Shown here piece by piece: positions 17,765-51,216 of a stretch of 64,000 nucleotides of DNA. The first letter of the stretch is position 1, and each line of letters begins with the position of its first letter. Source of the DNA: Candidatus Lustribacter sp. (lineage in GTDB: Bacteria > Vulcanimicrobiota > Vulcanimicrobiia > Vulcanimicrobiales > Vulcanimicrobiaceae); assembly GCA_965277805.1 (NCBI GenBank), contig OZ255842.1, forward strand, positions 4,608,001-4,672,000. Direction: 5' to 3'. Below the pieces are notes generated by a model, which was not told the origin of the DNA, did not search any database, and saw only the letters and a program-made list of their open reading frames with translations. A program made the position numbers and the translations under genes.

Positions 17765-17780
17765 GGTGACTTCTATCACG
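17765..17780. promoter_or_regulatory. CRP-type box GGTGAC-TTCT-ATCACG; -10 TAGACT (minus, 17738-17743) for second hemC
   Basis: Palindrome centred 41.5 bp upstream of predicted TSS ~17731. Confidence 0.75.
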
Positions 17781-17803
17781 CCGTGCGCTGAGAGGTTTGG
17801 TGT

Positions 17804-18391
17804 ATGACTGATCGCGTGCCGTTGAAGGCGCTCGCAGTTGGTTTGTTTTGGATCAACGTCGTCGCGCTCGGGCTCGGTCTTTTCGGCATCCTCGTTGCGA
17901 TTCCGCATGCGGGACCTTGGAAACACCCGGGCGACCTTGCCTTCTTCGTTTGGGCTCTGCCGCGCGGCGGTTCGATGGGCATGGTAACGGGTGCGCTCGC
18001 GATGCTTGTGGGCGATGGCTGGCGCCGGACGCTATTATTCGCCGTCATCTCCTGTGTCATTTCGGCTGCCGCGGAACTCACCAAGCACGAAAACGGGTTG
18101 GCCGTTCGGCGGTTACGAGTACCTCGAGCTCTTGGGATGGAAGATCGCGGGCGCGTTCCGTACGGTGTACCGCTGTCGTGGTTCTACATGGGTTTTGCGG
18201 CATACGTTCTGGCCACATCGCTCGTGCCCGCATTTGTGTCCGGTCGCGTTTGGCTGCGCGTTCTGCTCGGAACGTGGCTGCTAACCGCATGGGACCTCGT
18301 GCTCGATCCTGCAACCGCTTTGGCCGCAATCGCCCTGAGTCTCGTGCCGGCAATGGCGGCCCTCCGGCGACCGAGTCCGCGCACGGCTTGA
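17804..18391 (+). pseudogene. cruF: CruF-like carotenoid biosynthesis membrane protein, frameshifted internally and C-terminally shortened
   Basis: Conserved TGWPFGGYEY..LGWKIAG block lies in the +1 frame (18084-18152); VPYGVPLSWFYM and LTAWDLVLDPA in the main frame. Confidence 0.65.
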
Positions 18392-18399
18392 CGCCGGCG

Positions 18400-18753
18400 T
18401 TACTGCGGCGGGTTGTCCGGCGGTTTGGTCAGGTTCGGGAAGACCCGCTGCAGCTGGCGCTCGTAGGACTTGAGATCGAAACGGATCAGTTCTTCCTCGA
18501 CGATGCCGCGGACCCAGCGCTCGACGCGGTCCTTGGCAATGAACCACAGGGCCATGAACGGGGCGAGAACGACATGGAAGCCGACGAACGCCGCAAAATA
18601 CCAAGCCATGCCGAGCCACATCGGCGCGCCCCAACCCATGCGAATTGCCACCGCGGCGCCGGTAACGGTTGCCGCCGAATGAATGGCAATTCGAGCGTGG
18701 ACGTGCCGTGGCACGAACACGAGTTGGAGGCCCCGCGAGCCGGTTCTTAGCAC
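18400..18753 (-). CDS. Small hypothetical membrane protein
   Basis: ORF with two hydrophobic stretches, co-directional downstream of hemA copy 2; no family recognised. Confidence 0.4.
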   Translation of the reverse strand: MLRTGSRGLQLVFVPRHVHARIAIHSAATVTGAAVAIRMGWGAPMWLGMAWYFAAFVGFHVVLAPFMALWFIAKDRVERWVRGIVEEELIRFDLKSYERQLQRVFPNLTKPPDNPPQ

Positions 18754-18920
18754 GATCTCCCTGTTGACGACCGGCGCTCGATCCGTTCGAGCGGGCGTCT
18801 TCTTGCGGCGGTCATTATTAAAGTAAACGCACCGTTCCCGCCCGGTGATTCCATCAAGCGGGGCGTTTCGATCACATTATCAGGCGCACCTTATCGCGCA
18901 TATGGCCCGAATTCCAACGC

Positions 18921-20210
18921 TTACGGCCTGTGCCGCTCGTCGTCGGCTAGGGCGGCTTGCGACAGAGCGAAGATCTCATCGAGGAGCCGTGCCCGGTCGA
19001 GGGAACCATCGCGCATGCTCGAGATCGCGGGATGGAGGAGCTTCGAGACGATGCGTAGCGCGAGGCCGGTCACGAGCGTACGCTGGCGCTTGTCGAGCTC
19101 GGGGCAGCGTGCGAAGAGCCGGTCGAGTTCGGCCTCGCGGAGGGCATCGGCCTTTCGCGTGAGTGATGCCACCACCGGTAACGTGCGGCACGCCCGGTAC
19201 CAATGTTCGAACTGCGTCACGTGCGCCTCGATGATCTGCTCGACGAGCGGAATCGCGGCCTGACGGTGTTCGAGTGTCACGTCGACGGTTTCTTTGAGCT
19301 TGTCGATGTCGGTGACGATCGTGCCCGGAATGTGCGCGACCGCCGGATCGACGTCGCGCGGCATTGCGATATCGATCAGAAACAACGGCCGCTCGCGCCG
19401 GTAGCGCATTGCCTCGCCGATCAGTTCTTGCGTCAAAACGAAATGCGCGGCACCGGTTGAAGAAATCACGATGTCGGCTCCGCGCAGCGCGTCGATGAGC
19501 GACGGAAGCCCGGCCGCCTCACCGATACCGAGATTTGCCACCAGTTCGCGCGCACGATCGAGGTTCCGGTTGACGATGACCAGGCCTTGCGCCCCCTCGA
19601 GCTTGAGCCTCTTCGCAGCGGTCCGTCCCATTTTGCCGGCGCCGACCAGCACGATGTTCTTTCCCTGCAGCGGCCCAACGTGTTGCTTGGCCAACGTCAC
19701 CGCAACGGTAGCGATGCTGACCGATTCATTGCCGATGCCGGTCGACGAACGCGCGTTCTTGCCGGCGTTGATCGCATCGCGAAAGAGACGGTGCAGGGTC
19801 TTCCCGAGCGACTGTGCGCGCTGCGCCTGGTGGTAGGCTTCCTTCACTTGGCCGAGGATCTCGGCTTCGCCGATCAGCATCGAGTCGAGCCCGGTTGCCA
19901 CGTGCATGAGATGATCGACGGCCGTGGTTTCGACGAGCGTGTAGAGATACGGCTCGAGATCGTAGGCCACGTCACTGTGGCGGAAGTTGACCAGAAATTC
20001 TTTGAGCTGGCGTATGCCGAGCTCAGCGTCGGTCAGGTTGGCATAGATCTCCAGCCGGTTGCACGTGGAGAGCATCGCGGCTTCGAGAACCGTGTCGTAG
20101 TCACGCAACGCGACCAGTGCCTCGGCCATGTGATCGGGAGGAAACGCGTGCCGCTCACGGACCTCGGCCGGCGCCTCGTGATGCGAGATCCCGAGACAAA
20201 CGAGCGGCAT
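18921..20210 (-). CDS. hemA: Glutamyl-tRNA reductase, copy 2
   Basis: LSTCNRLEIY, GLDSMLIGEAEILGQVK, VGAGKMG, IDIAMPRDVDP; abuts bchH. Confidence 0.96.
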   Translation of the reverse strand: MPLVCLGISHHEAPAEVRERHAFPPDHMAEALVALRDYDTVLEAAMLSTCNRLEIYANLTDAELGIRQLKEFLVNFRHSDVAYDLEPYLYTLVETTAVDHLMHVATGLDSMLIGEAEILGQVKEAYHQAQRAQSLGKTLHRLFRDAINAGKNARSSTGIGNESVSIATVAVTLAKQHVGPLQGKNIVLVGAGKMGRTAAKRLKLEGAQGLVIVNRNLDRARELVANLGIGEAAGLPSLIDALRGADIVISSTGAAHFVLTQELIGEAMRYRRERPLFLIDIAMPRDVDPAVAHIPGTIVTDIDKLKETVDVTLEHRQAAIPLVEQIIEAHVTQFEHWYRACRTLPVVASLTRKADALREAELDRLFARCPELDKRQRTLVTGLALRIVSKLLHPAISSMRDGSLDRARLLDEIFALSQAALADDERHRP

Positions 20211-23200
20211 CTACGCTTTCTCGGTGAGTTGGCGTTTGTAGGTGGCGAGCTCCACATCGGCGTCGAGATCGTTGAGACGGTCTTTGAGTGACTGCTCGAG
20301 TTCCGCATCCTCCCACATGCCGCGCCGGCGCGTATCGAGTAAGATCTCGCCGAGTTCGCGCGTCTTGTGGACGTTGGCGGCAGCGATCCGTTCCCACTCA
20401 TCGAGCGTTACCTCGACCGTTCGCTTCCAGAGTTCGGGCGAGATGGTGTCGCCTAATGCCGCTTCGGTCGAACGCATCGCCTTGAAGATGTCGCCGAACT
20501 CCATCACGCCCGAATAGCCATGCTCCATCATGCGGTCGCGCCACGGCTTTGAGTGAAAGCGCGTCAGCACGCCGTTGACTACGACCGAACGGAAGTCGCG
20601 CACCTTCGGTTCCCGCCGCGTGAGATCGGTGACCACGATCATCGTGTCGTCTTGCCCGATCGATCGTTTCGCCGCACCGAAGGCGGACGTAAACGAGGCG
20701 AACATGTCTTCTTTGACGGGACCGCCGGCGCCCATGGCGACGAGCGGCTGCTGGATCACCTCGACCCGTTCGACCAGAAAGCGCTGAACCGCCGGTGCTT
20801 GCTCGAGGTTGATCTGGTTGTAGCTCGGTATCATGGCAAAGGAATTGTCGCTGATCCACGCCGCACCGATATCGTTGTAATCGGTGAACGTGCCTTGATC
20901 GAGCATGGCGCCCACTTGGCCCATGAACGCATCGTCGCCCATCCCGAAGCAGCGCGCGACGGCGAGGCGCCGGTCGACGCCGCCGGCGGTGAGCTCGTCG
21001 ACGTGCTTCTTGACGAAGTTCATGTCGTGCGGTTCGTCGGCATCGGCAGCCAGGATGGCGGCGTCGTGGATCAGGCGGATGGCGCCCGGAAACGTGTTCT
21101 TGAAGACCGTCGACGTGTTCGCGAGGATGTCGACGCGCGGGCGTCCCAGTTCGGATAGCGGAATCAACTCGGCGCGCTCGGCGCGGCCGAACTGATCTTT
21201 CGCGACGCGCGCACCGATCAGGTCGAGCGCTTGCGCGATCCCGACGCCGTCGCTCTCGAGCATCTCGCTGCCCCAGAGCACCACGCCGACGCAGGCCGGC
21301 AGCGTGCCGCGTTTCGCGGCGGCGGCTGCGAGCAGTTGTTCGACCGTGCGTTTGCCCTTGCGCTGCGCGGAATCCCGCGGCAGCATCCGCACGTCGGTGG
21401 ATGCCATGTTGCGGCCCGTCGGCACGACGCTCCAGTCGCCGACGATCTCGCCGCCGAGCGACGGTTCGAGATAGCGGCCCGCGAGCGTCGTGAGCAAGCC
21501 CTCGCGTTCGGCGTCGCCGATGCGGCCGAGGCCTTCCCAGAGGTTGCGAGCGCGCGACAAGAACGTTTCAAGTTCGGCCAGGTCGAACGGGCTCTTGGTC
21601 AGCGTGTGGCCGCCGATCGATTGCGAGCGCAAGATGCCCACGACCGCGTCGCGCCCGGCTTTGCCGCCGGGGCGCAGTACTTCGCTCTCGATCAGCGCGC
21701 GCGATGCTTCGCGGAGTTCGTCGAGCGTTTCGTGGTTGAACGAGCCATCGCCGTTGCGGGCATCGGCCGTGCGCGCGAGCGCGTCGTAGTCGAGTCCATA
21801 GCAACCGGCCACGAGCCGATGGATGTCGACGTCGGCGAACTCGAGGCACGCGTGGAATGTGTCGAGGCGGTCCTCCGGCGAGAGATTACGCCCGAACACG
21901 TGCTGTCCGGCCGGCGCATACTCTCCTTCGAGGGAGACGATCTCGTCGTGCACGGCACCGATGAAATCACGTTCGGCGGCGGCAGCGGGGACGTCGATCT
22001 TGAACCCGATGCGGGCCACGACCTCAGCGACTTCGGCCGCCAGGTCGGCGCGTTTTTCTGCGTCGTCGCTGATGTTGTTGTAGTAGTCGTGCACGAGGCG
22101 GTGCAGGTTGCGCAGATCCACGCTGCCTTCGACGCTCTTCAACGGCGGGCAGAGGTGCGATAGGATCGTCGCGTATGAGCGGCGCCGCGCGATCGAGGCT
22201 TCGACCGGGTCGAGGACGTTGAAGACGTACGTGTGCGGAACGTTGTCGACGAGAAATTCCGGATAGTCCCCGGCGGCGGGCGACCATTCCTTACCACGCG
22301 ACCATTCCACCAATCCGTGGGTTCCCACGTGCACGATGGCGTCGGCATTGAAGCGGCGCGTCGCATAGCGATAGGAAGCCAAAAGCCACGGTGACGGCGG
22401 CGCCTTCTTATCGTGGATAATGGTGAGGTCTTCCATGCCGCGCATATCTTGCAAGAGCACGAGCACGTTGCCGTAGCGCAAGCCTTTGACCGGCAGCGTT
22501 TGGGGCGGCTGGCCCCAGGCTTCGTAGAACAGCGCTTCGTGCGCGGGCGGCAGGCCGCCGACCCAGTCGCGGATTTCGCCCGCGCTGACGACGCCGACGT
22601 GGTGCTCGCCCGCATACATCCCCTGCAGCTTGCGGCTCGTCTCGGCGTCGTCGGCATCGGGTTCACCGACCGTATACCCGTCAGCGCCGAGGGCCTCGAG
22701 CATCGAACGTACGGAGCCGGCCACGTCGAGGAAATATGCCGCGCCGACGTTACCGGGGCCGGGCGGAAAGTTATAGACAAACAGCGCGAGTTTTTTCTGC
22801 GCGTTCGCGAGATGGCTCAACCGCAGCCAGCGCGTCGTCAGGTCGGAAACGAGTTCGACGCGGTCGGGAATCGGCTCGAGCGCGCTGATCTCTTCGCCGC
22901 GTTCGCGCGAACAGATCGGCGGCAGCGGTTGAATGCCTTCGGTCTCGGGGGTCACGACGTTGCCGATATACTCGAGCATGGCCACGCCGTATTTCGAGTC
23001 GGCCAGATCGGCTCGCGAGAGCGCCGCGTTCACGGGTGACGTATACACCCGCGGGTTGCCGAGGTCGTGGATAAAATCGATCGTCGCTTCCGGTGCGCCG
23101 GCGAACATCGAACCGGCCAGATACAACGGCACGTTGTGGTAGACGGCCTTGACCAGCGGCTTCTTCGTTTTCGGCTCGAGCAAATGTCCGCGTGAGACGA

Positions 23201-24101
23201 TGTGCGCGTTGAACACCGCGGTCATCGAACAGATCACCCCCACGCCGCGCTTTTCCCAGCCGGCGATGGCGGCGTCCAAGACCGGATGGTTCCATTCCGG
23301 CAAAAAGAGGTCGTGCGTGATGAAGCCGATGCGATCCCACATCGGCCGGCCGTACGTCGCCTCGAACCACGGGTCGTACCACTTCAAGTAGTCGGCCGGA
23401 CCGTCGAAGAGGCCCTCGTGTGCGTAGTGATAGATGCCTTCGTTCGCGACTTTTTCCGGCATCGGCGCTTCACCCGCGTAGCCGCAGTCCATGAAGTGCT
23501 TCATCAGGTAGAGGAACATGTTCCCGACGTTATCGACGCTGCGGTTGTACCAGTAGCCGGTGAGCACGAGCGTTTTGAAGATCGGGCTCTTGGTGAACTT
23601 CGTCATGAGCGGCGCCGACTTGACCATCTTCTGCATCGTCAGGAAGCCCTGACGCGCTTCCCAGAACTTGTCGGTCTTCTCGTTCCGGCGATCTGCGAAA
23701 AACTTTTGGATCTTCATCGTGATCTTACGGCCCGGACTCGGCGTCATGTGGTCGTACTCGAAGCCGAGCGTTTTGAACATCAACTCGCCGAGCCGTTTGT
23801 CGGGAATGTCGTACCAGAGAAACTTCAGCCGTCCGAGTTGGCCCTTAGCGTCCATATCGGTCAGCAGCGTCTTGAGCCGCTCGACCGTGTCGATCGACAT
23901 CGACTGCCAGCCGATCAGGATGTCGGCTTCGCGAATCGCTTGCCGGAAGCGCGCGAGCGTGCCGGGATCGTTGAAGTCGGAGGCGCCATAGTGGTCGAGC
24001 GTCCACTCTTGTCCTGTCTTCTCGCGCAGGGCGGGAAAAGCAAGACGAATCGCGTTAGCGCGTTCGTCGGGAGCCCATGAGGAATACCCAACGACTTTCA
24101 T
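20211..24101 (-). CDS. bchH: Magnesium chelatase large subunit (BchH/CobN family, divergent)
   Basis: HVGTHGLVEW, ARRRSYATILSHLCPPL, PTGRNM, LIPLSELGRPRVD, MMEHGYSG; neighbours bchM/acsF. Confidence 0.85.
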   Translation of the reverse strand: MKVVGYSSWAPDERANAIRLAFPALREKTGQEWTLDHYGASDFNDPGTLARFRQAIREADILIGWQSMSIDTVERLKTLLTDMDAKGQLGRLKFLWYDIPDKRLGELMFKTLGFEYDHMTPSPGRKITMKIQKFFADRRNEKTDKFWEARQGFLTMQKMVKSAPLMTKFTKSPIFKTLVLTGYWYNRSVDNVGNMFLYLMKHFMDCGYAGEAPMPEKVANEGIYHYAHEGLFDGPADYLKWYDPWFEATYGRPMWDRIGFITHDLFLPEWNHPVLDAAIAGWEKRGVGVICSMTAVFNAHIVSRGHLLEPKTKKPLVKAVYHNVPLYLAGSMFAGAPEATIDFIHDLGNPRVYTSPVNAALSRADLADSKYGVAMLEYIGNVVTPETEGIQPLPPICSRERGEEISALEPIPDRVELVSDLTTRWLRLSHLANAQKKLALFVYNFPPGPGNVGAAYFLDVAGSVRSMLEALGADGYTVGEPDADDAETSRKLQGMYAGEHHVGVVSAGEIRDWVGGLPPAHEALFYEAWGQPPQTLPVKGLRYGNVLVLLQDMRGMEDLTIIHDKKAPPSPWLLASYRYATRRFNADAIVHVGTHGLVEWSRGKEWSPAAGDYPEFLVDNVPHTYVFNVLDPVEASIARRRSYATILSHLCPPLKSVEGSVDLRNLHRLVHDYYNNISDDAEKRADLAAEVAEVVARIGFKIDVPAAAAERDFIGAVHDEIVSLEGEYAPAGQHVFGRNLSPEDRLDTFHACLEFADVDIHRLVAGCYGLDYDALARTADARNGDGSFNHETLDELREASRALIESEVLRPGGKAGRDAVVGILRSQSIGGHTLTKSPFDLAELETFLSRARNLWEGLGRIGDAEREGLLTTLAGRYLEPSLGGEIVGDWSVVPTGRNMASTDVRMLPRDSAQRKGKRTVEQLLAAAAAKRGTLPACVGVVLWGSEMLESDGVGIAQALDLIGARVAKDQFGRAERAELIPLSELGRPRVDILANTSTVFKNTFPGAIRLIHDAAILAADADEPHDMNFVKKHVDELTAGGVDRRLAVARCFGMGDDAFMGQVGAMLDQGTFTDYNDIGAAWISDNSFAMIPSYNQINLEQAPAVQRFLVERVEVIQQPLVAMGAGGPVKEDMFASFTSAFGAAKRSIGQDDTMIVVTDLTRREPKVRDFRSVVVNGVLTRFHSKPWRDRMMEHGYSGVMEFGDIFKAMRSTEAALGDTISPELWKRTVEVTLDEWERIAAANVHKTRELGEILLDTRRRGMWEDAELEQSLKDRLNDLDADVELATYKRQLTEKA

Positions 24102-24134
24102 ATGCCGACGCTACGCCGTCCGGCTCTAGCCGAC

Positions 24135-24150
24135 GGTGACGATAATCACG
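24135..24150. promoter_or_regulatory. CRP-type box GGTGAC-GATA-ATCACG; -10 TAGCGT (minus, 24108-24113); probable leaderless bchH promoter
   Basis: Centre 24142.5 is 41.5 bp from the bchH ATG (24101); -10 at -12..-7. Confidence 0.8.
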
Positions 24151-24168: not shown

Positions 24169-26049
24169 TCAGCCGATCCGCGCGACGATATCGCTCAGAG
24201 CGAAGTAACGCCCGCGCGCGAGCTGCGCGAGCTCGCGCATCAATCCCGAGCTCTCCAAATCGTCCAGATTGATGAACGTCGTGCTCGCCCGTCCGGCCAG
24301 TCGCGCCGCCAGCGTGCGGCACTGTTCGGCGGCCGTCGCGGCGAGCGCGCGGACATCGCCGCCGCCCTCCAGCACCCGCGTCAGTTCGGCCTCGCCGCCA
24401 AGCGGGACGTTCGCGCGGCCGTCGCTGAACACGGCGATATCCACCTCGGCGCTTGGGTTCGCGCGGCGGAATCGTTCGGCGATGCGGCGCGCCCGCTCCA
24501 GCGCGTCGGGCAGCGGTGTGAGGGCGCGCGTTTCGCCCGGATCGAGTTCGGTAAGCCGCGCGGCCACGAGTTCCACGTTGCGGCCGGCGTGCTCGTCGAC
24601 GACCACATCGGCCGCCGGTCCCCAGCATGAAATGAGCGCGGCGCGTTCGCGCTCCGTGTAGATCGGCCGCAGCAGTTCGCGCGTTGCGGCCGCGACCGCA
24701 GCCGCGCTTTTCATCGTCGACTGCGAGGCGTCGACGATGAAGAGCGTCAAACGCAGTGGGAACGCAGCGTCGATGCTTTCCTTCGGTACGGCGGGCACGC
24801 CGGAACGGATCGCGATGCCGGCATCGAGGATCGTCGCCGTCGCGTCGAGCCGGCCGCCGGCGAACGGCCGCACCGCGATCGGCTGACCCTCGCGCTGCTG
24901 CTGAGCCTTGGCGCGGCCGGGCGCGCGTTCGGTGAGTTGCGGCGAGACGATCATTTCATCGCGCGGCCGCGCGCTTTGCGCGCCGGCGGCCGGTTCGGGT
25001 TCTTCTTGGGCGGCCGCATCGAGCGCGGCTTCGATCGTCGTGTTTTCGGCGTGATATTCGGTCAGCGCTTGGACGCGCAGCCGGCTGCCGCGGAGACGCG
25101 CGGCCATCGGGAGCACGCGGCGCACGTCGGCTGCGCTCGCGCTGCGCCGGCCTTCGAATGCGGCCAACGCGCATGCGGCTTCGAGCGCGACGAACTCCGT
25201 GCGATGGGATTCGATGCCGAGTTTCGTGACGGCATCGATCGCCAAGTCGATCGCCGGCCCCTCCGGCGTGACCGCCGGCAAGAGCGCGATCGCCCGGGCG
25301 ACGCGGCTGCGGAGCGCGCGCGTACGGCCGAGGTATTCGGCCGCGAAGGCTTTGGGATCGCGTGCGAAGGCGGCGTTACGCCGGTAGATCTCGGCGCGTT
25401 CCTCATGACCGGGTGCGGGCGCGATAAAGACGCGCAGGCCGATGCGGTCGGTGATTTGCGGGCGCAACTCGCCCTCTTCCGGATTCATCGTTCCGATCAG
25501 CGTGAAGCGCGACGGATACTCGATGACTTGCTGGCCGCGCTTGACGCGCACGATGCCTTGTGCGGCCGCGTCCAGCAGCACGTCGACGATCGCGTCACCG
25601 AGGAGATTGATCTCATCGATGTAGAGGATGGTGCGATTCGCGGAGGCGAGCAGGCCCGGGCGGAAGGCGATCTTCCCCGCTTCGAGTGCCGCGCGCAGGT
25701 CGACGGTGCCGACGACGTCGTCGATCTGCGCACTGGCCGGCAGCTCGACGATACCGGCCCGAACGCGCCGGGCCGAGTTGCGCGCATGAACGCCGGTCGC
25801 ACACTCTTCGCACAACGCCGAGCCGGTGGGGTCGCAACCGTAGGCGCAGCGGGCGCGCAGAACGACCGGCAGCAATTCGCCTGCACCGCGCACGATCGAG
25901 GTCTTGCCGATCCCTTTGGGGCCGGAGAGCAGCACGCCGCCGATGCGCGGATTGATCGCGGCCAAGAGTACCGCAAGCTTCGGCTCGTCCTGCCCGACGA
26001 TTGCCGCGAACGGGTAAGCAATGGAAACGGCACGCTGCGAAAGCGGCAT
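24169..26049 (-). CDS. bchD: Magnesium chelatase ATPase subunit, BchI-like AAA + vWA (BchD-like)
   Basis: YPFAAIVGQDE, GPKGIGKT, LYIDEINLL, GTMNPEEGELRPQ; C-term FIVDASQST, FSDGRANV; start ATG 26049. Confidence 0.85.
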   Translation of the reverse strand: MPLSQRAVSIAYPFAAIVGQDEPKLAVLLAAINPRIGGVLLSGPKGIGKTSIVRGAGELLPVVLRARCAYGCDPTGSALCEECATGVHARNSARRVRAGIVELPASAQIDDVVGTVDLRAALEAGKIAFRPGLLASANRTILYIDEINLLGDAIVDVLLDAAAQGIVRVKRGQQVIEYPSRFTLIGTMNPEEGELRPQITDRIGLRVFIAPAPGHEERAEIYRRNAAFARDPKAFAAEYLGRTRALRSRVARAIALLPAVTPEGPAIDLAIDAVTKLGIESHRTEFVALEAACALAAFEGRRSASAADVRRVLPMAARLRGSRLRVQALTEYHAENTTIEAALDAAAQEEPEPAAGAQSARPRDEMIVSPQLTERAPGRAKAQQQREGQPIAVRPFAGGRLDATATILDAGIAIRSGVPAVPKESIDAAFPLRLTLFIVDASQSTMKSAAAVAAATRELLRPIYTERERAALISCWGPAADVVVDEHAGRNVELVAARLTELDPGETRALTPLPDALERARRIAERFRRANPSAEVDIAVFSDGRANVPLGGEAELTRVLEGGGDVRALAATAAEQCRTLAARLAGRASTTFINLDDLESSGLMRELAQLARGRYFALSDIVARIG

Positions 26050-26059
26050 CACGACCGCT

Positions 26060-27927: not shown

Positions 27928-27989
27928 GGGGTTTTGACCTCACGGATGATGAAGTGCGATCAGCGTAACGCGCGAGCTGAGCGGACCTC

Positions 27990-38178: not shown

Positions 38179-38190
38179 GGCGCAACAGCG

Positions 38191-42323: not shown

Positions 42324-42332
42324 GGCAAGTAC

Positions 42333-43637
42333 ATGAGTAAACAGCCGTCGTCGATGTGTCCGGCGTTCGGTGCCGTGCGCAATCTGCTGCGCATGGAAGA
42401 TGCCATGCCGATCGTCATTTCGTCCGGTGACGGCTGCCTCTACGGCCACACGTTCGTCGCGCACTTCTACGTGGCCAACCGGCCGATCTATTCGCCCGGC
42501 GTCTCCTCGGAGATCTGGGCCAAGGGCAGCGCGTTCGACGAACTGCGCGCGATGGTCGTGCGGATGGCAGAAGAGCACCAGCCGGCGCTCATCCCGATCT
42601 GTTCGCTGTGCGTCTCGGACACCGTCGGCTTGCCGTTCGATCTGCTGCCCAAGCAGATCGGCAACACCGAAGTGGTCTACGTTCCGTTACCGGCGTACAG
42701 CGTGCACACGCACGCGCGGGCGAAAGACATCGTCGTCGATTCGCTGGTGTGGCGTCTGCCGCCGCAGCGGAAGGCGCGAGCCGGCGTCAACTTGATCGGC
42801 GAGATTTTTCCGTCGGATCCGATCAAGATCGACGAAGTCTTGCGCGCGATCGGGACGCACGTCAACACGCACGTGCCGGGCCCGCGCTGGGCAGATTACG
42901 TTGCAATGGTCGACGGCGCGCTTAACGCCCCGCTGCATCCGTTTTATAGCGAGAGCGTGAAGCGGATGAAGATGAAGCAGGGCTTGCCGTTCGTGGAGGG
43001 TGCGCCGGTCGGCATCGACGGCACCTATCGCTGGATCACGTCGGTCGGCACGGCGCTCGGGCTCGACCGGGCGACCGTCGAACGTGTCGCGAGCGACGAG
43101 CGCGAGCGCGTGCGGCTGGCGATTGCCGATTATCCGCTCAACGGATTGACCTTCATCGTGGCCGGCTACGAAGGGCACGAGTTTTTACTGGTGCGGCTCC
43201 TGATCGAAGCCGGCGCGAACGTCCCCTATCTCTCGACCGCAGTGAACGCGAACCCGCTGGCGCGCGAAGAAGCGGCCTGGCTCGAGGCGCACGGCTGCAG
43301 AGTGCTCTACGGCGCGAACTTCGAAGACGAGATCCGGGCGCTGACGGATCGCCCCTACGACTGCGTGATCGGCACGACGCCGCTCTGCGCCCACGCCAAA
43401 GAACTGGGCATTCCCTCGATCTACTATACGAACGCCATCGCGACGCGGTCGCTGATGCTCGCCTCGGGGGCGGCCGAGGTGCTGGGTCTGGTCGCGCAAA
43501 CCGTGCGCGCCAAGCCGCGCTACGACCGCATCGCGCGCTTCTTCGCCGCTGACGGCGCGAAGCTCGAGCGCTCGTACACGTCGTGGGCGCCGAAGATCGA
43601 TATCACGGCGCAGCTGATCGCCAACCGCGCGCTCTGA
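42333..43637 (+). CDS. bchY: Chlorophyllide a reductase subunit Y
   Basis: SMCPAFG, GCLYG, SLCV, LIGEIFPSDP, GAPVG, IGTTP. Confidence 0.92.
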   Translation: MSKQPSSMCPAFGAVRNLLRMEDAMPIVISSGDGCLYGHTFVAHFYVANRPIYSPGVSSEIWAKGSAFDELRAMVVRMAEEHQPALIPICSLCVSDTVGLPFDLLPKQIGNTEVVYVPLPAYSVHTHARAKDIVVDSLVWRLPPQRKARAGVNLIGEIFPSDPIKIDEVLRAIGTHVNTHVPGPRWADYVAMVDGALNAPLHPFYSESVKRMKMKQGLPFVEGAPVGIDGTYRWITSVGTALGLDRATVERVASDERERVRLAIADYPLNGLTFIVAGYEGHEFLLVRLLIEAGANVPYLSTAVNANPLAREEAAWLEAHGCRVLYGANFEDEIRALTDRPYDCVIGTTPLCAHAKELGIPSIYYTNAIATRSLMLASGAAEVLGLVAQTVRAKPRYDRIARFFAADGAKLERSYTSWAPKIDITAQLIANRAL

Positions 43638-45223
43638 TGGCTCAGATTCGCGAGAACATCGCCGAGAGCGAGCTGGTATCGGACGTCGTCAATACGCCGA
43701 TTCGCAAGCAGGTCACCGATCTCGATCATGCGGGCGGCGACACGGGCGCGATGCAGGTCTTTGCATCGCTGCGCGACGCGAACGTCGTGCTCGACGGGCC
43801 GGTGGGCTGTCATGTGATGCCGGCGGTGGCCGTCATCAACTACACCGATTCGGTTCCCTACTTGCAGAACGTCACGTGTTCGGAGCTCTCCGAGACCGAG
43901 GTAACGCTGGCCGGCACGCTCGGTGCCCTCAAGGCGAAGGTCGCGCAAGCGGAGGCCGACGGTCGCCAAGTGTTCATCGTCTCGACGCCGGTCTCCGAGT
44001 TGATCGGCGCGGCATGGACGACCGAACGCGCGCACGAGCCGCGCTCCGCGCTCTTCTTCGATTCGCATTCGCTCGACGACGACGAGTGGAAGTCGCGCGA
44101 TCGTGCGCTGCTCTTTCTCTGGCAGAATCGCGCACACTTCGCCGCCCCCGAGGGCACTCAGGCGGTGCCCGTTCCGGCGCGGCCGTCGGTGAACATCATC
44201 GGGCCGACGTACGGCAACTTCAACTCTTATAGCGATCTGGCGGAGATCAAGCGGCTCGTCGAGGGCATCGGCGCCGCCGTCAATCTGGTCTACCCGTTCG
44301 AAGCGAACTCGTACGACACGGCGCGTTTGGCGGACGCCGGTGCGACGATCGTGATGTATGCGGAGTACGGGCGCTCGCTGGCTCGCGAACTCGGTCTGCC
44401 GGCGTTCGCGGCCCCGATCGGTCTCGAACCGACGACGGAGTTTCTACGGGGACTCGGCGCCGCGCTCGGCTTGGAAGCGCAAGCCGAGGCGTTCATCCGG
44501 CTCGAAAAAAAGACCACCTTGAATGCATGGCACGACATCTGGCGCTCGACGCACAGCGACTTCTTCGCTAACGCACCGATCGCGGTGGTCGCGCCACCGA
44601 CCTACAAGGATGGACTGACGTATTACCTGGGCGAGGAGCTGGGGCTGCCGATCGCGTTTTCCGCCTACCGTACGGGGCCGGAAAGCGCGCCGAGCGAGGA
44701 CGTCCGGCACGCGCTGCGGGATCTCAGCCCCTCGCCGATGATCGTGTTCGGCTCGATCAACGAGCGCATGATCGTGGCGCAAGAGAAACTGCCGTCGCTG
44801 TTCTTGCAGTGTTCGTTCCCGGGCGCCGTCGTGCGCCGCGCGACCGGTACGCCCTTCGTCGGCTACGCGGGCGCCGTGTGGCTCTTGCAGTGCGTGTGCG
44901 AGGCGCTTTTCGACGTGCTCTTCGCGAACTTGCCCACGTCCGCGGCGCCGCCCGAGAAGGCCCTCGTCCCCACGCGTGAACTGATGCGCGACGCCGGCGA
45001 AGCCGTCGCCGCGTTGGGTAAGGGGCAGAACAGCGTGATCGCGTGGACCGCCGATGCGAAAGCGCTGGCTGAAGTCACGCTCAAGCGCGTGCCGTTCTTC
45101 GTCCGCGTGTCGGTGAACAAAAAACTCCGCTCCGAAGCGGAGAAGCTCGCGCGCGAACGTACCGGTACCGTCGACGCCGAGATCATCCGCGAGCTCACTG
45201 CCCGCTACGCTCCCGGCCGCTAA
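43637..45223 (+). CDS. bchZ: Chlorophyllide a reductase subunit Z
   Basis: DLDHAGG, DGPVGC, NYTD, GPTYGNFN..DLAEIKRL, RRATGTPFVGYAGA. Confidence 0.93.
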   Translation: MAQIRENIAESELVSDVVNTPIRKQVTDLDHAGGDTGAMQVFASLRDANVVLDGPVGCHVMPAVAVINYTDSVPYLQNVTCSELSETEVTLAGTLGALKAKVAQAEADGRQVFIVSTPVSELIGAAWTTERAHEPRSALFFDSHSLDDDEWKSRDRALLFLWQNRAHFAAPEGTQAVPVPARPSVNIIGPTYGNFNSYSDLAEIKRLVEGIGAAVNLVYPFEANSYDTARLADAGATIVMYAEYGRSLARELGLPAFAAPIGLEPTTEFLRGLGAALGLEAQAEAFIRLEKKTTLNAWHDIWRSTHSDFFANAPIAVVAPPTYKDGLTYYLGEELGLPIAFSAYRTGPESAPSEDVRHALRDLSPSPMIVFGSINERMIVAQEKLPSLFLQCSFPGAVVRRATGTPFVGYAGAVWLLQCVCEALFDVLFANLPTSAAPPEKALVPTRELMRDAGEAVAALGKGQNSVIAWTADAKALAEVTLKRVPFFVRVSVNKKLRSEAEKLARERTGTVDAEIIRELTARYAPGR

Positions 45224-45229
45224 GGAAGA

Positions 45230-46540
45230 CTACTGGCTGTCCCTCGACAAGCTCGGGATGACAGTAGCGGGCACGCCGGCAGCGATAGCGCGCCGGGTAG
45301 CGATAACGGCTTCTTTGGCGGTGATGGAGGGGGGCGCCGTGTTGAGCGGCGCGCGCGGGGCGAGCCACCAGTTGGTGACGGCGCCGATCGCACCTTCGAA
45401 CATCAGGTTGAGGTGGTCGAGCGGCCGGACCGTTGCGAGATCCTTGAAGAGATAGCTGTCGAACGTCAGCTTCTGCACCGTATCGACGCGGCACATGTCG
45501 GTGAACCACTCGCGTTTGAAGTGCCCGGTGTACGAGATGCCTTCGAGAAACTCGAGGAAGTCGAACATCGCCCCGTATTTCTTCTGCCAGTTCTTCTCGT
45601 AGGTTTCGAGTTTGCCGGCGTAGCCGAAGAAGCCGGTGAGCGCGGTCGCGGCCATGCGGCCCGCGGCCATCGAGAAGTAGATGCCCTCGCCGGACGTGTG
45701 CGCGACCATGCCGGCGGCGTCCCCGACGAGCAGCGTGCGGCCGAAGACGAGCTTCTTGTTGCGCTTCATCGGCAGCGGGTGGCCTTCGAGCAGAATGCGC
45801 TTCGCGCCGCGCAGCTTCGCGCCGGCACGGGCTTTGACGCCTTCCAAGAACGCGTACGAGGCGTTTGCGTGTTCGGGACGGCAACCCGTGCCGACCGCCA
45901 CGTGATCGCTTTTCGGAAACACCCAGCCGTAGAAATCGGGCGAAATGTCATCGCCGAGGTAGAGCTCGGCCCGGTTTTCGTAGTACGCCATCGCGTCGGG
46001 CGGCAGTTCGAGACGCTCCTGGATCGCCGAAGCGTAGCGCACCGCGGGGCGGCCGACCGATTTGGCAACCGCGGAGCCGGCACCGTCGGCGCCGACGACG
46101 GCGTCACAATTGAGATATTCCTCGCGTTCGTCGCGGTATCGCACCCGGACGCGCAGCGTGCCGTCGGGCTGCGCCTCTTGCGAGACGAAGGCGGCCTCGC
46201 GGAGTTCGGCACCGGCCTGCTGCGCCTTCTCGCGCAGCGTGCGGTCGAGCACCTCGCGCGTGAGCATGATGATGTAGTCATCATCGCGCGCAACCGTGCC
46301 GCGTACGTCCATCTCGACCGTCGCGCCGCTCGGCGCGATGACCGTGGCGTGCGTGACCTTACGCTCGATGATCGAACGCGGGATGCCGAACTCGCTCATC
46401 GCCTTGGGCGGGATCGCGCCGCCGCAGGGTTTCTTGCGCTTGAGATCGCGCTCGAGCAGGATGACGTCCGCGCCCGTTGCGGCCAAGTCTCCCGCCGCGA
46501 CGCTTCCGCCGCAATTCGCTCCGACGACCACGACCTTCAT
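45230..46540 (-). CDS. bchP: Geranylgeranyl reductase
   Basis: KPCGGAIP, SPDFYGWVFPK, VGDAAG..SGEGIYF, VQKLTFDSYL. Confidence 0.95.
   Translation of the reverse strand: MKVVVVGANCGGSVAAGDLAATGADVILLERDLKRKKPCGGAIPPKAMSEFGIPRSIIERKVTHATVIAPSGATVEMDVRGTVARDDDYIIMLTREVLDRTLREKAQQAGAELREAAFVSQEAQPDGTLRVRVRYRDEREEYLNCDAVVGADGAGSAVAKSVGRPAVRYASAIQERLELPPDAMAYYENRAELYLGDDISPDFYGWVFPKSDHVAVGTGCRPEHANASYAFLEGVKARAGAKLRGAKRILLEGHPLPMKRNKKLVFGRTLLVGDAAGMVAHTSGEGIYFSMAAGRMAATALTGFFGYAGKLETYEKNWQKKYGAMFDFLEFLEGISYTGHFKREWFTDMCRVDTVQKLTFDSYLFKDLATVRPLDHLNLMFEGAIGAVTNWWLAPRAPLNTAPPSITAKEAVIATRRAIAAGVPATVIPSLSRDSQ
45240..45263. repeat. Terminal fragment of the palindromic element inside the bchP 3' end
   Basis: TCCCTCGACAAGCTCGGGATGACA shares the GCTCGGGATGACA terminus. 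Confidence 0.65.
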
Positions 46541-47518
46541 CTAGAAGCCTCCGAATCGCAATGCCAGCGCGCCGGCCAGCATCGACCAGCAAAAGAGCGG
46601 GATCGCGCTCGCGCAATACCACGGCGCGAGGCGCTTTGGATCGGTCGAGAGTTTGCCTTGCATCGGCAACTGCGCGATCAGCAGCACGTTCATCACGAGC
46701 GCCTCGATCCAGCCTTTGTTCGCGAGTACATATGCCAGCGCGATGGCCTGGAACAGGTTGATAAACGTGACCGCTTGCAGCAGCGCGCGCTTCTCGCCGA
46801 GCATCACCGGAATCGAACGCAGACCGAGCTGCCGGTCACCTTCCACGCTTTTGAAGTCGTTGAGCGTCATCAGGCCATGCGCGCCGAATGAGAAGAGCAC
46901 GGCGAGGACGATCGTGCCGAACGTGATCGCGCCGAACGCCGCCGAGCCGGCTAACCATGCGAAGCCTTCGTATGAGAGCGCGCAGGCCGTATTGGCCAGC
47001 CAGCCGTTGCGCGCTTTGAGGCGCACCGGCGGCGTGCTGTACGCGAGTGCCAAAAGCATACCCGCTAGCGCCAGATAGCCGACCGTCCGCCCGAGCCCGA
47101 ATGCGAACGCGAGCGCGAGCGCGCCGAGCCCGAGCGCCACGAGGACGATCGTGCGCGTGCTCAGGATGTTGGCGGCGGTCGGGCGATTGGGTTCGTTGAT
47201 GCGGTCGACGTCGCGGTCGAAGTAGTCGTTCACGACTTGCGAAAACGCGCACAGCAACGGTCCGGCCATGAACATCGCGATGATGATGCGTGCGACGGTC
47301 GGGATGTCCCAGTGGCTGCCGGATGAGCCGACGGCGCCCACCATGATCGCCCACATCGGCGCAAACCACGTACCGGGTTTGGCAAAGCTTCCGAGCGAGG
47401 CGTTGATCTTCGCTGCGCCGCGCTCTTTGTCGGTGAACGGCAAGAGCATCGCGCCGAATTCGCGCACGGTGCTGACGGTCGATTGGGCCGACTCGGCCAG
47501 CACGTCGCGCTTAGCCAC
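46541..47518 (-). CDS. bchG: Bacteriochlorophyll synthase
   Basis: KPGTWFAPMWA, SQVVNDYFDRDVDRINEPNRP, YSTPPVRLK, LNDFKSVEGDR; start refined to GTG 47518. Confidence 0.95.
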   Translation of the reverse strand: MAKRDVLAESAQSTVSTVREFGAMLLPFTDKERGAAKINASLGSFAKPGTWFAPMWAIMVGAVGSSGSHWDIPTVARIIIAMFMAGPLLCAFSQVVNDYFDRDVDRINEPNRPTAANILSTRTIVLVALGLGALALAFAFGLGRTVGYLALAGMLLALAYSTPPVRLKARNGWLANTACALSYEGFAWLAGSAAFGAITFGTIVLAVLFSFGAHGLMTLNDFKSVEGDRQLGLRSIPVMLGEKRALLQAVTFINLFQAIALAYVLANKGWIEALVMNVLLIAQLPMQGKLSTDPKRLAPWYCASAIPLFCWSMLAGALALRFGGF

Positions 47519-49019
47519 CGACGTGTTCGCGTGCCGCCAGGACGGCCGACTCGTCGATGCGCGCGATCCCATGCTCGCGTGCGTACAGCTCGATATTCGA
47601 GCGCGCTTTCTTGCGCACGAAGAACGGAATGCGCCCGATGAGCTTCAGTGCGCCATCGTCCCAGATCAGCTCGCCGCTCGTCGGCGCGCTCCGCTCTTCG
47701 AGCCCTTCTGGAGCCGCTTCGGCGAAGCGGCCTTGCCCGCGCGGTCCAAACGTCTCGATCAGATGATGCTCGAGGCCCAGGACCTGCGTCTGGTTGACGA
47801 GGTCGCCGATGTGGTTGGCGCCGTCATAGCCCAAGAACGGCGCATAACCGAGCGGGAAGTTCAGCACGTGCGCGGGCGGCGAGATGACGGCGCACGGCAC
47901 GCCGAAACGGCTGGCGGAGTGCCGCTCCATCTGCGTTCCGAACACGATGTCGGGCCGGGTCAAGTCGATCAGGGCGGCGATCTGGCGGTAATTATCGGTG
48001 ACGACGATGTCTTTGGCGATGGTTCCGATCCGCTCGCGTAAGGCGCGCTCGTGCGGCAGCACGTACGTGCCGGCCCACTCGACGTCCATGTCGAGCTCGT
48101 CATGCAGTACCCGCGCGATACCGGCCGCGGCGGACGGGGTACCGAACACGCCGACCCGTTTCCCCGAGAGCGCGTGGGCGTCGACCGTGCGCGCGTACCA
48201 TGCGAGCTTCGCCCCGCGCGCGGCATGTGTCACGCGAGCGCGGGGAATCTCGAGCATCAGCGCGATCTCGGCAAGCAGCCGTGTCGTGCCGGCTTCGCCG
48301 TAGGGCGCCTCCGTCACGTACGGCATTCCGAAGCGGTCGCGCAAGAATTCCATCGTGGGCAAGGCGAGTTCGGGCGCCGTCGGCACGTTGAGCCACGCAC
48401 GCGTGATCGAGCGCAGGTCGTCGGGAGTCGCCCCGAGCGGCAGAACGGCGTTGACGCTCACGCCGAGGTCGGCGAACATGCGCCGCAGTGATTCGATGTT
48501 GGCGTGGTCGTGGAAGCCGAGCAGCGATGGGCCGATCAGGTTGATCGACGGGCGGGGCGTGCGGTCGTGGCCGTCTTGCGCGAAGTGTTCCACGATCTGC
48601 GCGACGGTCTTCGCAAACGCACTATACTCGGTGTCGCGCACGGGGTGCGTAGCGGCTTGCAGAATTTCTGCTCGCACCGAGCCGCGCGGGATCATCGCGA
48701 TCTCGCCATCGAGCGGTTCTTGGAGCACCGCGGCGGTCGCGCTGCGCGTGACGACGATCAGCTCCGGCGCGACGCGCTGGTCGACCTCGAGGACCGCGCG
48801 CCCGATATCGGCCGGTGCGCCGGCCAGCGTGGCTTCGGATACGGCCGAGATCGTGAGCGGCGGCATGACGCCGAGCCGTTCGAACATCGCCAGCATGATC
48901 GTGCCGTAGCCGTCGCCCTTCGGCGCGCGCAGGATCGTGTGCACGCCGCTAAACGACGACGCTGCCTTGCTGACGCCGACGTGCGCGGGTGCCTCGTACG
49001 ACCAAACCGCGAGCTTCAC
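47511..49019 (-). CDS. bchB: Dark-operative protochlorophyllide reductase subunit B
   Basis: MKLAVWSYEAPAHVG, APKGDGY, FGTQMERH, VISPPAH, LGLEHHL. Confidence 0.96.
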   Translation of the reverse strand: MKLAVWSYEAPAHVGVSKAASSFSGVHTILRAPKGDGYGTIMLAMFERLGVMPPLTISAVSEATLAGAPADIGRAVLEVDQRVAPELIVVTRSATAAVLQEPLDGEIAMIPRGSVRAEILQAATHPVRDTEYSAFAKTVAQIVEHFAQDGHDRTPRPSINLIGPSLLGFHDHANIESLRRMFADLGVSVNAVLPLGATPDDLRSITRAWLNVPTAPELALPTMEFLRDRFGMPYVTEAPYGEAGTTRLLAEIALMLEIPRARVTHAARGAKLAWYARTVDAHALSGKRVGVFGTPSAAAGIARVLHDELDMDVEWAGTYVLPHERALRERIGTIAKDIVVTDNYRQIAALIDLTRPDIVFGTQMERHSASRFGVPCAVISPPAHVLNFPLGYAPFLGYDGANHIGDLVNQTQVLGLEHHLIETFGPRGQGRFAEAAPEGLEERSAPTSGELIWDDGALKLIGRIPFFVRKKARSNIELYAREHGIARIDESAVLAAREHVGG

Positions 49020-50299
49020 GCTTGCGGTACCGACGCCGGAACCGAACGAAAGAAGTTCAGGTCGATCGGATGTTCGGGCGAGCCGGCGATGGCGCGCGTC
49101 TCGGCCAGCGCGTCATGACGGCGGCGAGCCATCGCGAACATCCGGAAGAGCGCCGGCGCGCCGGAAAAACCGCGGATCGGCTGAAACGTGAGCTCCGTCG
49201 ACCACTTCACGTTGAAGCCCATGCCTTCGAGTGCGTTCGCGACGTTGAGGTTGGCGACGACGAGATCGGGACGATGGTGCGAAAGCTGTCTGAAGGCCGC
49301 AAAGCGATCCGGTGCTTCGAGGATCTCGACACCCGCGAGCCGGTTCGACTCGGCGGCGTGAAACTTGCGGTACACCTTGGGCGTGGAGACGAACGGAACG
49401 TTGGCGCCGGCCGCGCGCAACGAGCGCGCCAGCGGCAACTCGAGCAAGGCATCGGAGTAAAACGCGATCGACAAGCCGCGCAGCGGGGCGATCTCGCGCT
49501 CACAGGCCGCCCATGCTTGCGCTTCGCGCGCTTCATAGGAGACCGTGCGCCCGAACGCGGCGGCGAGTCCCTCGTAGAACGCGCGGGCGCCGTCGGGGCC
49601 ATACGGGAATGGGAGCGCCGGTACCGTGCACTTGCGTTCGCGAACCGCGGCTGCGCACGAGCCGTACAGATACGGATGCACCGGCGCCAGAATCGTATTC
49701 TTTCCAATGGGCGGAACGTCGAGCGCGCTCTCGCCCGGCAAGAACCAAGGACTCGGCAACCCCATCGCTTTGCATTCGATGGTGATTTCGGCTTCTTCGA
49801 GCGCGGAGAGACAGCCGAGGATGACGAGGTTCGCTTCATCCGTCTGCGCCGCACGCGCGATCATTGCGGTCAGCACGTGATCTTCGCCCTCGGTGTAAGC
49901 GGCATCGAAGCCGTCCATGCGGGCCGGGTACACGCGCACGCCCGTTTCCTTTTCCAGCGGCGCGGCGCAGCCCGCGACGTTCATCTTGAGAATTTCCGGC
50001 GTACAGGTCGAGCCGAGGAAGATCGCTTTCGGAGCGTGTTCTTCCACCACGGTGCGTACCAGCGGCAGCAGTGCCGTCAGCGCGTCGCGTCCGGCGAGAT
50101 CATCTTCGTCGAGCAGCGCCGTGGCGAAGCGCGGCTGCGCGAAGATCATGACGCCGAGCGCCGTCTGCAAAAAGCCCTGGCACGACCCGGTTCCGACCAC
50201 CAGGAAAAAGCTGTCCTGCATCTTGTGATGCAGCCAGCCGATCGGCGCGAGCGAACAGAAGTCGTCGCGCTCTAAGACGTCCGCGGCCCCTTCGATCAT
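49016..50299 (-). CDS. bchN: Dark-operative protochlorophyllide reductase subunit N
   Basis: FCSL..WLHHKMQDSFFLVVG, GSTCTPEIL, TEGED, PYGPDG, KWSTELTF. Confidence 0.96.
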   Translation of the reverse strand: MIEGAADVLERDDFCSLAPIGWLHHKMQDSFFLVVGTGSCQGFLQTALGVMIFAQPRFATALLDEDDLAGRDALTALLPLVRTVVEEHAPKAIFLGSTCTPEILKMNVAGCAAPLEKETGVRVYPARMDGFDAAYTEGEDHVLTAMIARAAQTDEANLVILGCLSALEEAEITIECKAMGLPSPWFLPGESALDVPPIGKNTILAPVHPYLYGSCAAAVRERKCTVPALPFPYGPDGARAFYEGLAAAFGRTVSYEAREAQAWAACEREIAPLRGLSIAFYSDALLELPLARSLRAAGANVPFVSTPKVYRKFHAAESNRLAGVEILEAPDRFAAFRQLSHHRPDLVVANLNVANALEGMGFNVKWSTELTFQPIRGFSGAPALFRMFAMARRRHDALAETRAIAGSPEHPIDLNFFRSVPASVPQA

Positions 50300-50311
50300 C
50301 GGACGCCGGGG

Positions 50312-51145
50312 TTAGATCGCAGCGGCCAACGCGGGTTCTCCGGCATGGACGAAGTCGCCGCCGAGCAAACCGAAGAGTTCGCGCTCGGGGATCGGCGTCG
50401 GAATCGAACACGGCACGCCGTCGAGCATGCGTTGCGCGAGGTCCATCCAGGGTGCGCCGAGTTCGCCGCTCGGATCGATGTCGAAGACCGTGCGTGCGGT
50501 GAGGCGGCTGCGGCGGACGCCGTCGTGCTCGGGTATCGCGGCCAGCACGACCGTACCAATGCGCTCCGCAAACGGCCCGACGAGGGCGGTATCGCTCGCG
50601 CGGTTGGCGACGATCCCGGCCAGCATCCCCCCGCCGCTCTTCTGCTTGATCCCGATCGCGGTCGCAATGCGGTTGGCGGCGAAGATCGAATCGAAGTCGT
50701 TGGTCGCCACGATGATCACTTGCTCGCTGTGCTGCAGCGGCGCCGAGAAACCGCCGCACACCACGTCGCCGAGGACGTCGAAGACCTGGATCTCGTAGTC
50801 TTGGTAGACGCCGAACTTCTCCAGCAGCTTGACCGTTTCGCCGACGACGTATCCGCCGCACCCGGCGCCCGCGGGCGGGCCGCCCGACTCGACGCAATCG
50901 ACGCCGAACTTGCCGGGGAAGATGATCTCCTCGCGCTCGATCTCTTCGGCCTTGAATTTGTAGGACGAGAGGACCTCGACGACCGTTGGGATCAACGAGC
51001 CCGTAAGCGTAAACGTCGAATCGTGCTTGGGATCGCAGCCGACCTGAATCGTCTTCTTGCCGAGACGCCCGAATGCAGCCGAGAGGTTCGACGAGAACGT
51101 GCTTTTTCCGATGCCGCCCTTGCCATAGACTGCGATTTTGAGCAT
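50312..51145 (-). CDS. bchL: Dark-operative protochlorophyllide reductase iron protein
   Basis: [51 protein letters not shown]. Confidence 0.97.
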
Positions 51146-51200
51146 AGAGTCCCCCCGTAAGCCGTCCTCATCAACGTTACTGCCGGGTGCGGGGAGGGGC

Positions 51201-51216
51201 GGTGATAGCCGTCACC
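51201..51216. promoter_or_regulatory. CRP-type box GGTGAT-AGCC-GTCACC between divergent bchL and hemE
   Basis: -10 TAACGT (minus, 51174-51179) and TAGGGT (plus, 51239-51244) both at class II spacing. Confidence 0.85.

Follow-up and report, generated by a model that had tools for sequence, protein, structure and literature searches.

At class II promoters, Escherichia coli CRP occupies a site centred at -41.5, and its helix RETVGR reads TGTGA-N6-TCACA. NtcA of cyanobacteria is a class II-type activator as well, with 2-oxoglutarate rather than cyclic AMP (cAMP) as its effector, while PpsR/CrtJ is a PAS-helix-turn-helix repressor with sites of the form TGT-N12-ACA. Here we describe the promoters of a photosynthesis gene cluster within a 64,000-nucleotide stretch of Candidatus Lustribacter sp. 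DNA (contig OZ255842.1, positions 4,608,001 to 4,672,000), referred to here as the window, in which five 16-bp boxes with the core GTGA-N6-TCAC precede genes of bacteriochlorophyll (BChl) and haem synthesis. Our data suggest that these boxes are probably the operators of a class II regulon dedicated to BChl synthesis and controlled by a Crp-type activator. A full-text search of the literature found no work on regulators of phototrophy in Eremiobacterota, and the main papers on these phototrophs (the available excerpts of PMC9758169, and PMC6664022) make no mention of a regulator, a promoter, FNR or PpsR.

A sequence-only reading of the window had described the five boxes, here named by their first base, together with six TANNNT hexamers as their -10 elements. 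We found all five 16-mers in place and letter for letter, and all six hexamers, each 21 or 22 nt away from its 16-mer (Table 1). The five boxes are intergenic, with the qualification that box 27990 falls within the longest open reading frame (ORF) of a PsiE-like gene, 5' of its Pfam match. Overall, the motif GGTGANNNNNNTCAC occurs at 7 places in the window and gives 10 strand matches, compared to a mean of 0.37 in 100 dinucleotide-preserving shuffles, of which none reached 10 and the largest gave 4. Since the shuffle counts stay far below the count in the window, a chance origin of the boxes is excluded. The core GTGA-N6-TCAC likewise occurs at 7 places where 0.79 are expected, while no more than one match is seen in the window for the inverted order or for any of the control spacings N4, N5, N7 and N8. 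Two cores lie beyond the five boxes: one at 29652, in a candidate sixth box, and one at 40211, which lies inside bchF, lacks a -10 and is probably a chance occurrence.

We found the same concentration when the whole source genome (G000; 5.53 Mb on a single contig, 64% G+C, of which the window is 1.2%) was scanned. The window holds 7 of the 67 genomic GTGA-N6-TCAC cores, 3 of the 11 full GGTGA-N6-TCACC palindromes and 3 of the 4 matches to GGTGAT-N4-RTCAC; the remaining 60 cores lie mostly inside coding sequence, as judged by crude gene calls. A composite of the exact core and a TANNNT starting 21-22 nt after the 16-mer matches seven times in the genome. Six of these are the window promoters (the five boxes, with box 51201 counted both ways) and the seventh is inside a coding region. 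The composite is therefore nearly unique to these promoters. Allowing one mismatch gives 28 composite matches, 13 of them intergenic by crude gene calls and 12 of those 13 outside the window, and none of the matches elsewhere in the genome adjoins a recognised pigment gene.

Conservation was assessed within a sample of 201 genomes of the phylum (the source and 200 others), in which the relatives considered are 12 phototrophic Eremiobacterota genomes from 10 genera of one family. We took the DNA upstream of bchH, bchM, bchL, bchN, bchC and pufL from all 12 and kept in each the closest match to GGTGAYNNNNRTCACC, allowing up to 2 mismatches and disregarding the -10. A box was found in 12/12 relatives upstream of bchH (box centre 41.5-43.5 bp from the start codon), bchM (59.5-90.5 bp), bchL (41.5-86.5 bp) and bchF/bchC (74.5-657.5 bp from bchC, mostly with bchF in between), and in 10 of the 11 relatives assessable for bchN (42.5-70.5 bp), where one contig is cut and in genome G130 bchN simply follows bchL. 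Gene order is rearranged among these genomes, with bchL mostly apart from bchN and puf elsewhere in some, and the boxes follow the operon starts despite the rearrangement. The puf operon was considered as a target and rejected: a box is present at only 2 of 15 puf loci and at none in the window. Both cases are second pufL copies, in G045 and G126, with the box approximately 850-875 bp upstream and CATGCT at 22 nt. Three genomes (G045, G126 and G139) have two pufL copies each, with identical scores and 26-37 kb apart. Within the window, the puf and crt units are without a box, apart from the weak sixth candidate at 29651.

We next used the 16-mer as the anchor for an alignment of 65 boxes in promoter orientation, of which 58 come from the relatives and 7 from the window. 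GTGA and TCAC are free of mismatches in 65/65, with variation seen in the four central bases and in the flanks. TANNNT follows the 16-mer at 21 nt in 37 cases and at 22 nt in 16 (53/65), with none at any other offset from 2 to 24, and the looser NANNNT is present at 21/22 nt in 64/65. Only box 17765 read in the cruF direction lacks it, which agrees with the claim that this box belongs to hemC2: TAGACT lies at 21 nt on the hemC2 side and the cruF-like side has no NANNNT at 21/22 nt. The distal side of the relatives' boxes carries a -10 in 0/58. The box centre lies 29.5 or 30.5 bp 5' of the first -10 base, which corresponds to the claimed -41.5 or -42.5 if the -10 is taken to span -12 to -7; the underlying spacing of 21-22 nt holds in the window and in the relatives alike. 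This fixed spacing would give a class II Crp/Fnr-type promoter architecture. The site is a two-fold symmetric inverted repeat whose half-sites GTGA and TCAC are equally conserved (65/65), and it therefore fits a dimer rather than a sigma -35 element. At the -35 place (alignment positions 15-20) the promoters read C, C/G, G, N, N, N, with no TTGACA-like hexamer, and the alignment shows no extended -10 TG.

Several of these promoters are predicted to give leaderless mRNAs. In 13/13 genomes the bchH ATG lies 6-7 nt after the -10 and at a distance of 41.5-43.5 bp from the box centre, so that the mRNA is predicted to start at or next to the ATG. The same type of arrangement is present at three bchL and three bchN genes of the relatives. 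Furthermore, a TANNNT ending 6 nt 5' of a longest-ORF start codon occurs 78 times in the source genome compared to approximately 8-38 times at other spacings, and this over-representation suggests that leaderless starts are normal in this organism.

The protein proposed to bind the boxes is a Crp-family regulator encoded directly after pufC, which we name CrpP. Its residues 29-112 match PF00027, a cyclic nucleotide-binding-type beta-roll (35.0 bits, cut-off 27.5), and its C-terminal helix-turn-helix matches PF13545 (69.7 bits) and PF00325 (36.6 bits). A structure model has a beta-roll followed by a long helix (mean pLDDT confidence score 70.5, with the DNA-binding domain scored low). The helix RETVSR, which the sequence-only reading had pointed out, is present and unchanged in 16 orthologs, within the invariant stretch THQDLANMIGTARETVSR, and 23 further homologs from metagenomes all keep R188, E189 and R193. 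R-E-x-x-x-R is the pattern (R180, E181, R185) by which E. coli CRP reads GTGA. As this pattern predicts, G stands at core positions 1 and 3 in 65/65 boxes. The helix carries the CRP-type Arg, unlike the Fnr type, which is Glu-x-x-Ser-Arg without a preceding Arg. In addition, neither CrpP nor its orthologs contain an Fnr-type N-terminal cysteine cluster, the sole widely conserved cysteine being C50, which is missing in 1 of 16. At the cAMP-pocket position the orthologs share an invariant SIWSDRSLLKGYWREV, which by eye appears to differ from the cAMP-pocket motif. It is plausible that CrpP responds to a ligand other than cAMP, or that control is exerted through its own abundance, by co-expression with the reaction-centre genes.

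CrpP orthologs occur in 12 of the 200 other genomes of the phylum (62-68% identity, E<=1e-85); the remaining matches are paralogs at <=32% identity. The distribution of bchL matches that of the ortholog without exception, both being present in one set of 13 genomes out of 201. An exact-core box stands beside crpP, 5' of bchF, in 14/15 ortholog loci compared to 0/17 paralog loci. In the source genome the crpP ATG overlaps the pufC stop by one base (39100-39104), suggesting that translation of the regulator is coupled to that of the reaction-centre operon. The pufLMC-crpP adjacency is also present in G145 and G011, and pufC-crpP in G039, G156, G018 and G138. Among proteins of solved structure, the best relatives of CrpP are NtcA (E 3e-17), mycobacterial and corynebacterial CRP/GlxR (approximately 1e-15), CooA and SdrP, while similarity to E. 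coli CRP chains is distant (E about 1e-7). More than 120 clusters of close CrpP homologs exist in metagenomes, all named just 'CRP/FNR family', and the closest named records that contain CrpP are metagenome-assembled genomes labelled Eremiobacteraeota or Vulcanimicrobiota.

The sequence-only reading had assigned every bch unit, hemE and the second hemC (hemC2) to the regulon. The bch part of this claim held, given the boxes kept in 12 relatives, while the hemC2 and hemE part is limited to the source genome, where both boxes fit the spacing rule exactly. The hemC2 protein is 54% identical to the hemC part of a cysG-hemC fusion at 3833-5764, and a stand-alone hemC2 was not found in the relatives, which hold only the fused cysG-hemC. 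The URO-D family (hemE) occurs once in the source genome, beside box 51201 in the photosynthesis cluster; by the same queries it was not found in the near-complete single-contig phototrophs G130, G045 and G011, and G145 has a weak partial match of 35.6 bits. All of hemE, hemF, hemH and hemY are single-copy in the source genome. Of 10 boxes examined in 9 loci of the relatives outside bch promoters, 9 lack a -10 at 21/22 nt. The tenth, CGTGATAGCTATCACC in G156 (positions 1501-1516 of locus L054, G156:C4:20277-23291), has GAGAAT at 21 nt and sits in the 3' end of cysG-hemC, approximately 100 bp 5' of hemB (ALAD; PF00490, E 4.6e-147). This suggests repeated recruitment of haem-trunk genes.

We considered who else might read the boxes, and whether they are read at all. 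That they are no transcription-factor sites, having arisen by chance or serving as the -35 part of an alternative sigma promoter, is highly improbable. A two-block sigma promoter, too, could account for a -10 partner whose distance is fixed. However, conservation is as strong in the distal half-site (GGTGA, 45-49 bp 5' of the start) as in the proximal one, the site is a perfect inverted repeat, box 51201 serves both directions, and chance is excluded by the shuffles. The sigma-factor -35 reading was ruled out by the equal conservation of the distal half-site. It also appears quite unlikely that the protein on the box is a repressor blocking the -35 region, in the manner of PpsR/CrtJ of purple bacteria. 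A protein bound to the box, which does cover the -35 position, could obstruct RNA polymerase, and the master regulators of proteobacterial photosynthesis clusters are repressors, according to the available part of PMC5362033. Against occlusion, the -10 spacing is held to 1 bp in 64/65 promoters, as expected of contact between protein and polymerase and not needed for blocking, and there is neither a TTGACA-like hexamer at the -35 place nor an extended -10 TG. Furthermore, Crp-family sites at -41.5 are activating in the cases studied.

Another candidate binder is the second Crp paralog of the window, Crp2, with the helix RVTVTR, either by itself or with both paralogs competing or cooperating; we give this a small but real probability. 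Some of our own data count here against CrpP as the binder. Crp2 orthologs (51-76% identity, helix GSNRVT(V/I)TR) are present in 12/12 relatives and also at loci L001-L003 (the further loci being L109-L119 and L006), and crp2 lies mostly directly beside the bchM box in these genomes. A motif of its own was not found for Crp2, as GTA-N8-TAC has 3 matches in the window compared to 1.7 expected, and there is no conserved non-coding palindrome 5' of puf, the palindromes shared upstream of pufL falling in pufBA coding sequence. The sharing of sites by FnrL and CrpK in Rhodobacter sphaeroides, described in the accessible part of PMC4263372, offers a precedent for two paralogs at one site. On the other side, crp2 adjoins no box in the window, and the third core base is G in 65/65 boxes, which fits the glutamate at the second helix position of CrpP and not a valine. 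By alignment the Crp2 helix equals that of NtcA, which reads GTA-N8-TAC. It is by this helix logic only that CrpP appears the better candidate; phyletic pattern and neighbourhood do not separate the two. The N-terminal extension of Crp2, approximately 140-170 aa, has no Pfam family match and no usable Atlas match.

Further points weigh against a dedicated activator regulon. Raw GGTGAY-N4-RTCAC strand matches number 4-12 per genome in the phototrophs and 6-10 in five relatives without the regulator, in which they are scattered. We therefore dropped the raw count per genome as an argument, the phototrophs being no higher; the discriminating signal is place, full palindromy and the -10 partner, not count. 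The relatives are kin, so counts across genomes overstate independence. At the bchN promoters and at one bchL promoter the -10 matches NANNNT but not TANNNT. The absence of a -35 is only weakly defined, since the genome-wide signal for the usual -35 of the phylum is faint. Lastly, an obligatory photosynthesis-specific activator of the sole hemEFHY would gate respiratory haem, so basal activity at that promoter, or a broader role of the regulator, would be needed.

Overall, the regulon proposed from sequence appears supported and survives the available computational tests; which protein binds, that it activates and where transcription starts are what we infer from it. A dimeric Crp-family activator, most likely CrpP from the end of the puf operon, would bind the boxes. 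The box overlaps the -35 place, and a dimer at -41.5/-42.5 could contact RNA polymerase directly. The activator would turn on bchH-hemA2, bchM-acsF-bchID, bchFCXYZ and bchLNBGP together, and in the source genome also the recruited hemC2 and hemEFHY, with several of the target mRNAs predicted to be leaderless. In the accessible part of PMC9758169, quantitative reverse transcription PCR on the cultured relative Vulcanimicrobium alpinum gave a 2.9-fold increase of bchM and a 1.86-fold increase of pufL in the light. The light induction of bchM in V. alpinum indicates that bch transcription is regulated.

To judge from the literature searched, this is the first regulatory circuit proposed for phototrophy in Eremiobacterota. 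The circuit is concrete, with a single regulator and a single 16-bp site at five to six promoters, for which starts are predicted to the base, and a cultured relative exists with a light-responsive bchM. The fixed spacing and predicted leaderless starts also provide a first picture of promoter architecture in the phylum. If the proposal is true, the gene cluster could stay off unless activated, and could be transferred as a unit with the activator that it encodes. More tentatively, and with considerable doubt, phototrophy in Eremiobacterota might be a self-contained single-switch module. A cAMP-independent Crp from the puf operon would then be obligatory for -35-less, partly leaderless bch promoters, and reaction-centre synthesis would feed forward into pigment. 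The sole hemE/F/H/Y and the extra hemA and hemC would have been captured, wiring respiratory haem to the switch, and Crp2 may add a second input, possibly light, at these promoters or at others nearby.

The gene map (Table 1) was obtained from NCBIfam and Pfam profile scans of the window. The CruF-like ORF beside hemC2 (17804-18750 +) matches the 310-position CruF profile over positions 12-185 only, with three stops met on reading through to 18750; the gene may be truncated or frameshifted, and a second CruF-like copy is present elsewhere in the source genome. The bchI/D fusion at 24169-26328 (-) is the sole BchI-like gene of the source genome, in which neither a separate bchI nor puhA was found. 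A BchI-D fusion is also reported for V. alpinum in the accessible part of PMC9758169. A hemB-sized stretch at 2847-3833 (-) lies 3' of cysG-hemC1, in the frame of a 2847-5111 ORF, and is absent from the crude gene calls.

Table 1. Boxes, -10 elements and genes of the photosynthesis cluster, in window coordinates
Feature	Position	Strand	Remarks
hemC2	16796..17713	-	Stand-alone hydroxymethylbilane synthase, second copy; TIGR00212, 292.8 bits
-10 TAGACT, hemC2 promoter	17738..17743	-	21 nt from box 1; predicted start ~17731
Box 1, GGTGACTTCTATCACG	17765..17780		Serves hemC2 (minus strand), not the CruF-like gene
CruF-like ORF	from 17804	+	195 aa
bchH-hemA2 operon	18921..24101	-	Mg-chelatase H and second glutamyl-tRNA reductase; profile scan
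-10 TAGCGT, bchH promoter	24108..24113	-	ATG at 24101 after 6 nt; predicted leaderless mRNA
Box 2, GGTGACGATAATCACG	24135..24150		Between bchI-D stop and bchH start
bchM-acsF-bchI/D-fusion operon	24169..27927	-	Profile scan
-10 TACGCT, bchM promoter	27962..27967	-	Predicted start ~27955
Box 3, GGTGATAGCCGTCACC	27990..28005		Upstream of bchM
PsiE-like gene	between bchM and crtE	+	Profile scan
crtE (-), then alpha/beta hydrolase (+), then crtB	divergent crtE/hydrolase junction at ~29651		Profile scan
Candidate sixth box, CGTGACGACGGTCACC	29651..29666		crtE/alpha-beta-hydrolase junction; weak -10 CATAGT 21 nt away towards crtE
Crp2	33055..34131	+	Second Crp paralog; 358 aa as longest ORF
pufBALMC	35967..39102	+	Profile scan
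crpP	39102..39779	+	Crp-family regulator, 225 aa; helix RETVSR; proposed box binder
Box 4, GGTGATGGCTATCACC	39834..39849		5' of bchFCXYZ, closely 3' of crpP
-10 TACGAT, bchF promoter	39871..39876	+	Predicted start ~39883
bchFCXYZ operon	39899..45223	+	Profile scan
bchLNBGP operon	45230..51145	-	Profile scan
-10 TAACGT, bchL promoter	51174..51179	-	Predicted start ~51167
Box 5, GGTGATAGCCGTCACC	51201..51216		Common to bchL and hemE promoters, which diverge from it; composite scan passed on either side
-10 TAGGGT, hemE promoter	51239..51244	+	Predicted start at or adjoining TTG at 51251
hemE-hemF-hemH-hemY operon	51251..55612	+	hemE at 51251-52255

Compared with known systems, the locus resembles E. 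coli CRP in its 16-bp inverted repeat, with the GTGA-N6-TCAC core extended to GTGAY-N4-RTCAC, in the position of the box centre 29.5/30.5 bp before the -10, and in the R-E-x-x-x-R helix pattern and Crp domain architecture of the regulator. It differs in its outer base (GGTGA, with G in place of T) and in having a small, dedicated regulon instead of a global one. In addition, no cAMP-pocket motif can be made out by eye, the phylum is a different one and many targets are predicted to be leaderless. NtcA is the closest relative of CrpP with a solved structure; however, its helix is RVTVTR compared to RETVSR in CrpP, its GTA-N8-TAC site is not enriched in the window, and the NtcA-type helix belongs to the paralog Crp2. 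The Thermus thermophilus proteins TTHB099/TT_P0055 (LdrP, TAP) and SdrP (PDB 2zcw) are, like CrpP, small Crp-family proteins; the accessible part of PMC7662524 describes them as cAMP-independent and places LdrP in a light-controlled pigment cluster beside litR and crtB. LdrP has served as a model for class II activation, and the SdrP helix RETVTK aligns to RETVSR of CrpP. In contrast, the motif given for TTHB099 in the same source is TGT(A/g)-N8-(T/c)ACA, the targets in our window are bch rather than carotenoid genes, and no LitR/CarH partner was seen in the window.

The FnrL and CrpK proteins of R. sphaeroides come close in function. According to the accessible part of PMC4263372, these Crp/Fnr proteins, two paralogs with related sites, directly bind 5' of bchEJGP, hemA, hemN and hemZ and activate bchE, while their consensus is the Fnr-type TGA-N6-TCA. 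FnrL senses O2 by an N-terminal Fe-S cysteine cluster, which is absent from CrpP, and both proteins take in only some of the pigment genes, as members of a large regulon, with PpsR and PrrA exerting most of the cluster control. The arrangement in which one regulator has palindromic sites at most photosynthesis-cluster promoters is shared with PpsR/CrtJ of purple bacteria and Gemmatimonadota. PpsR/CrtJ belongs to a different family, recognises a different site and has an effect opposite in sign to the one proposed here. The logic suggested by our data would thus be activation at -35-less promoters, unlike the repression by PpsR/CrtJ in purple bacteria.

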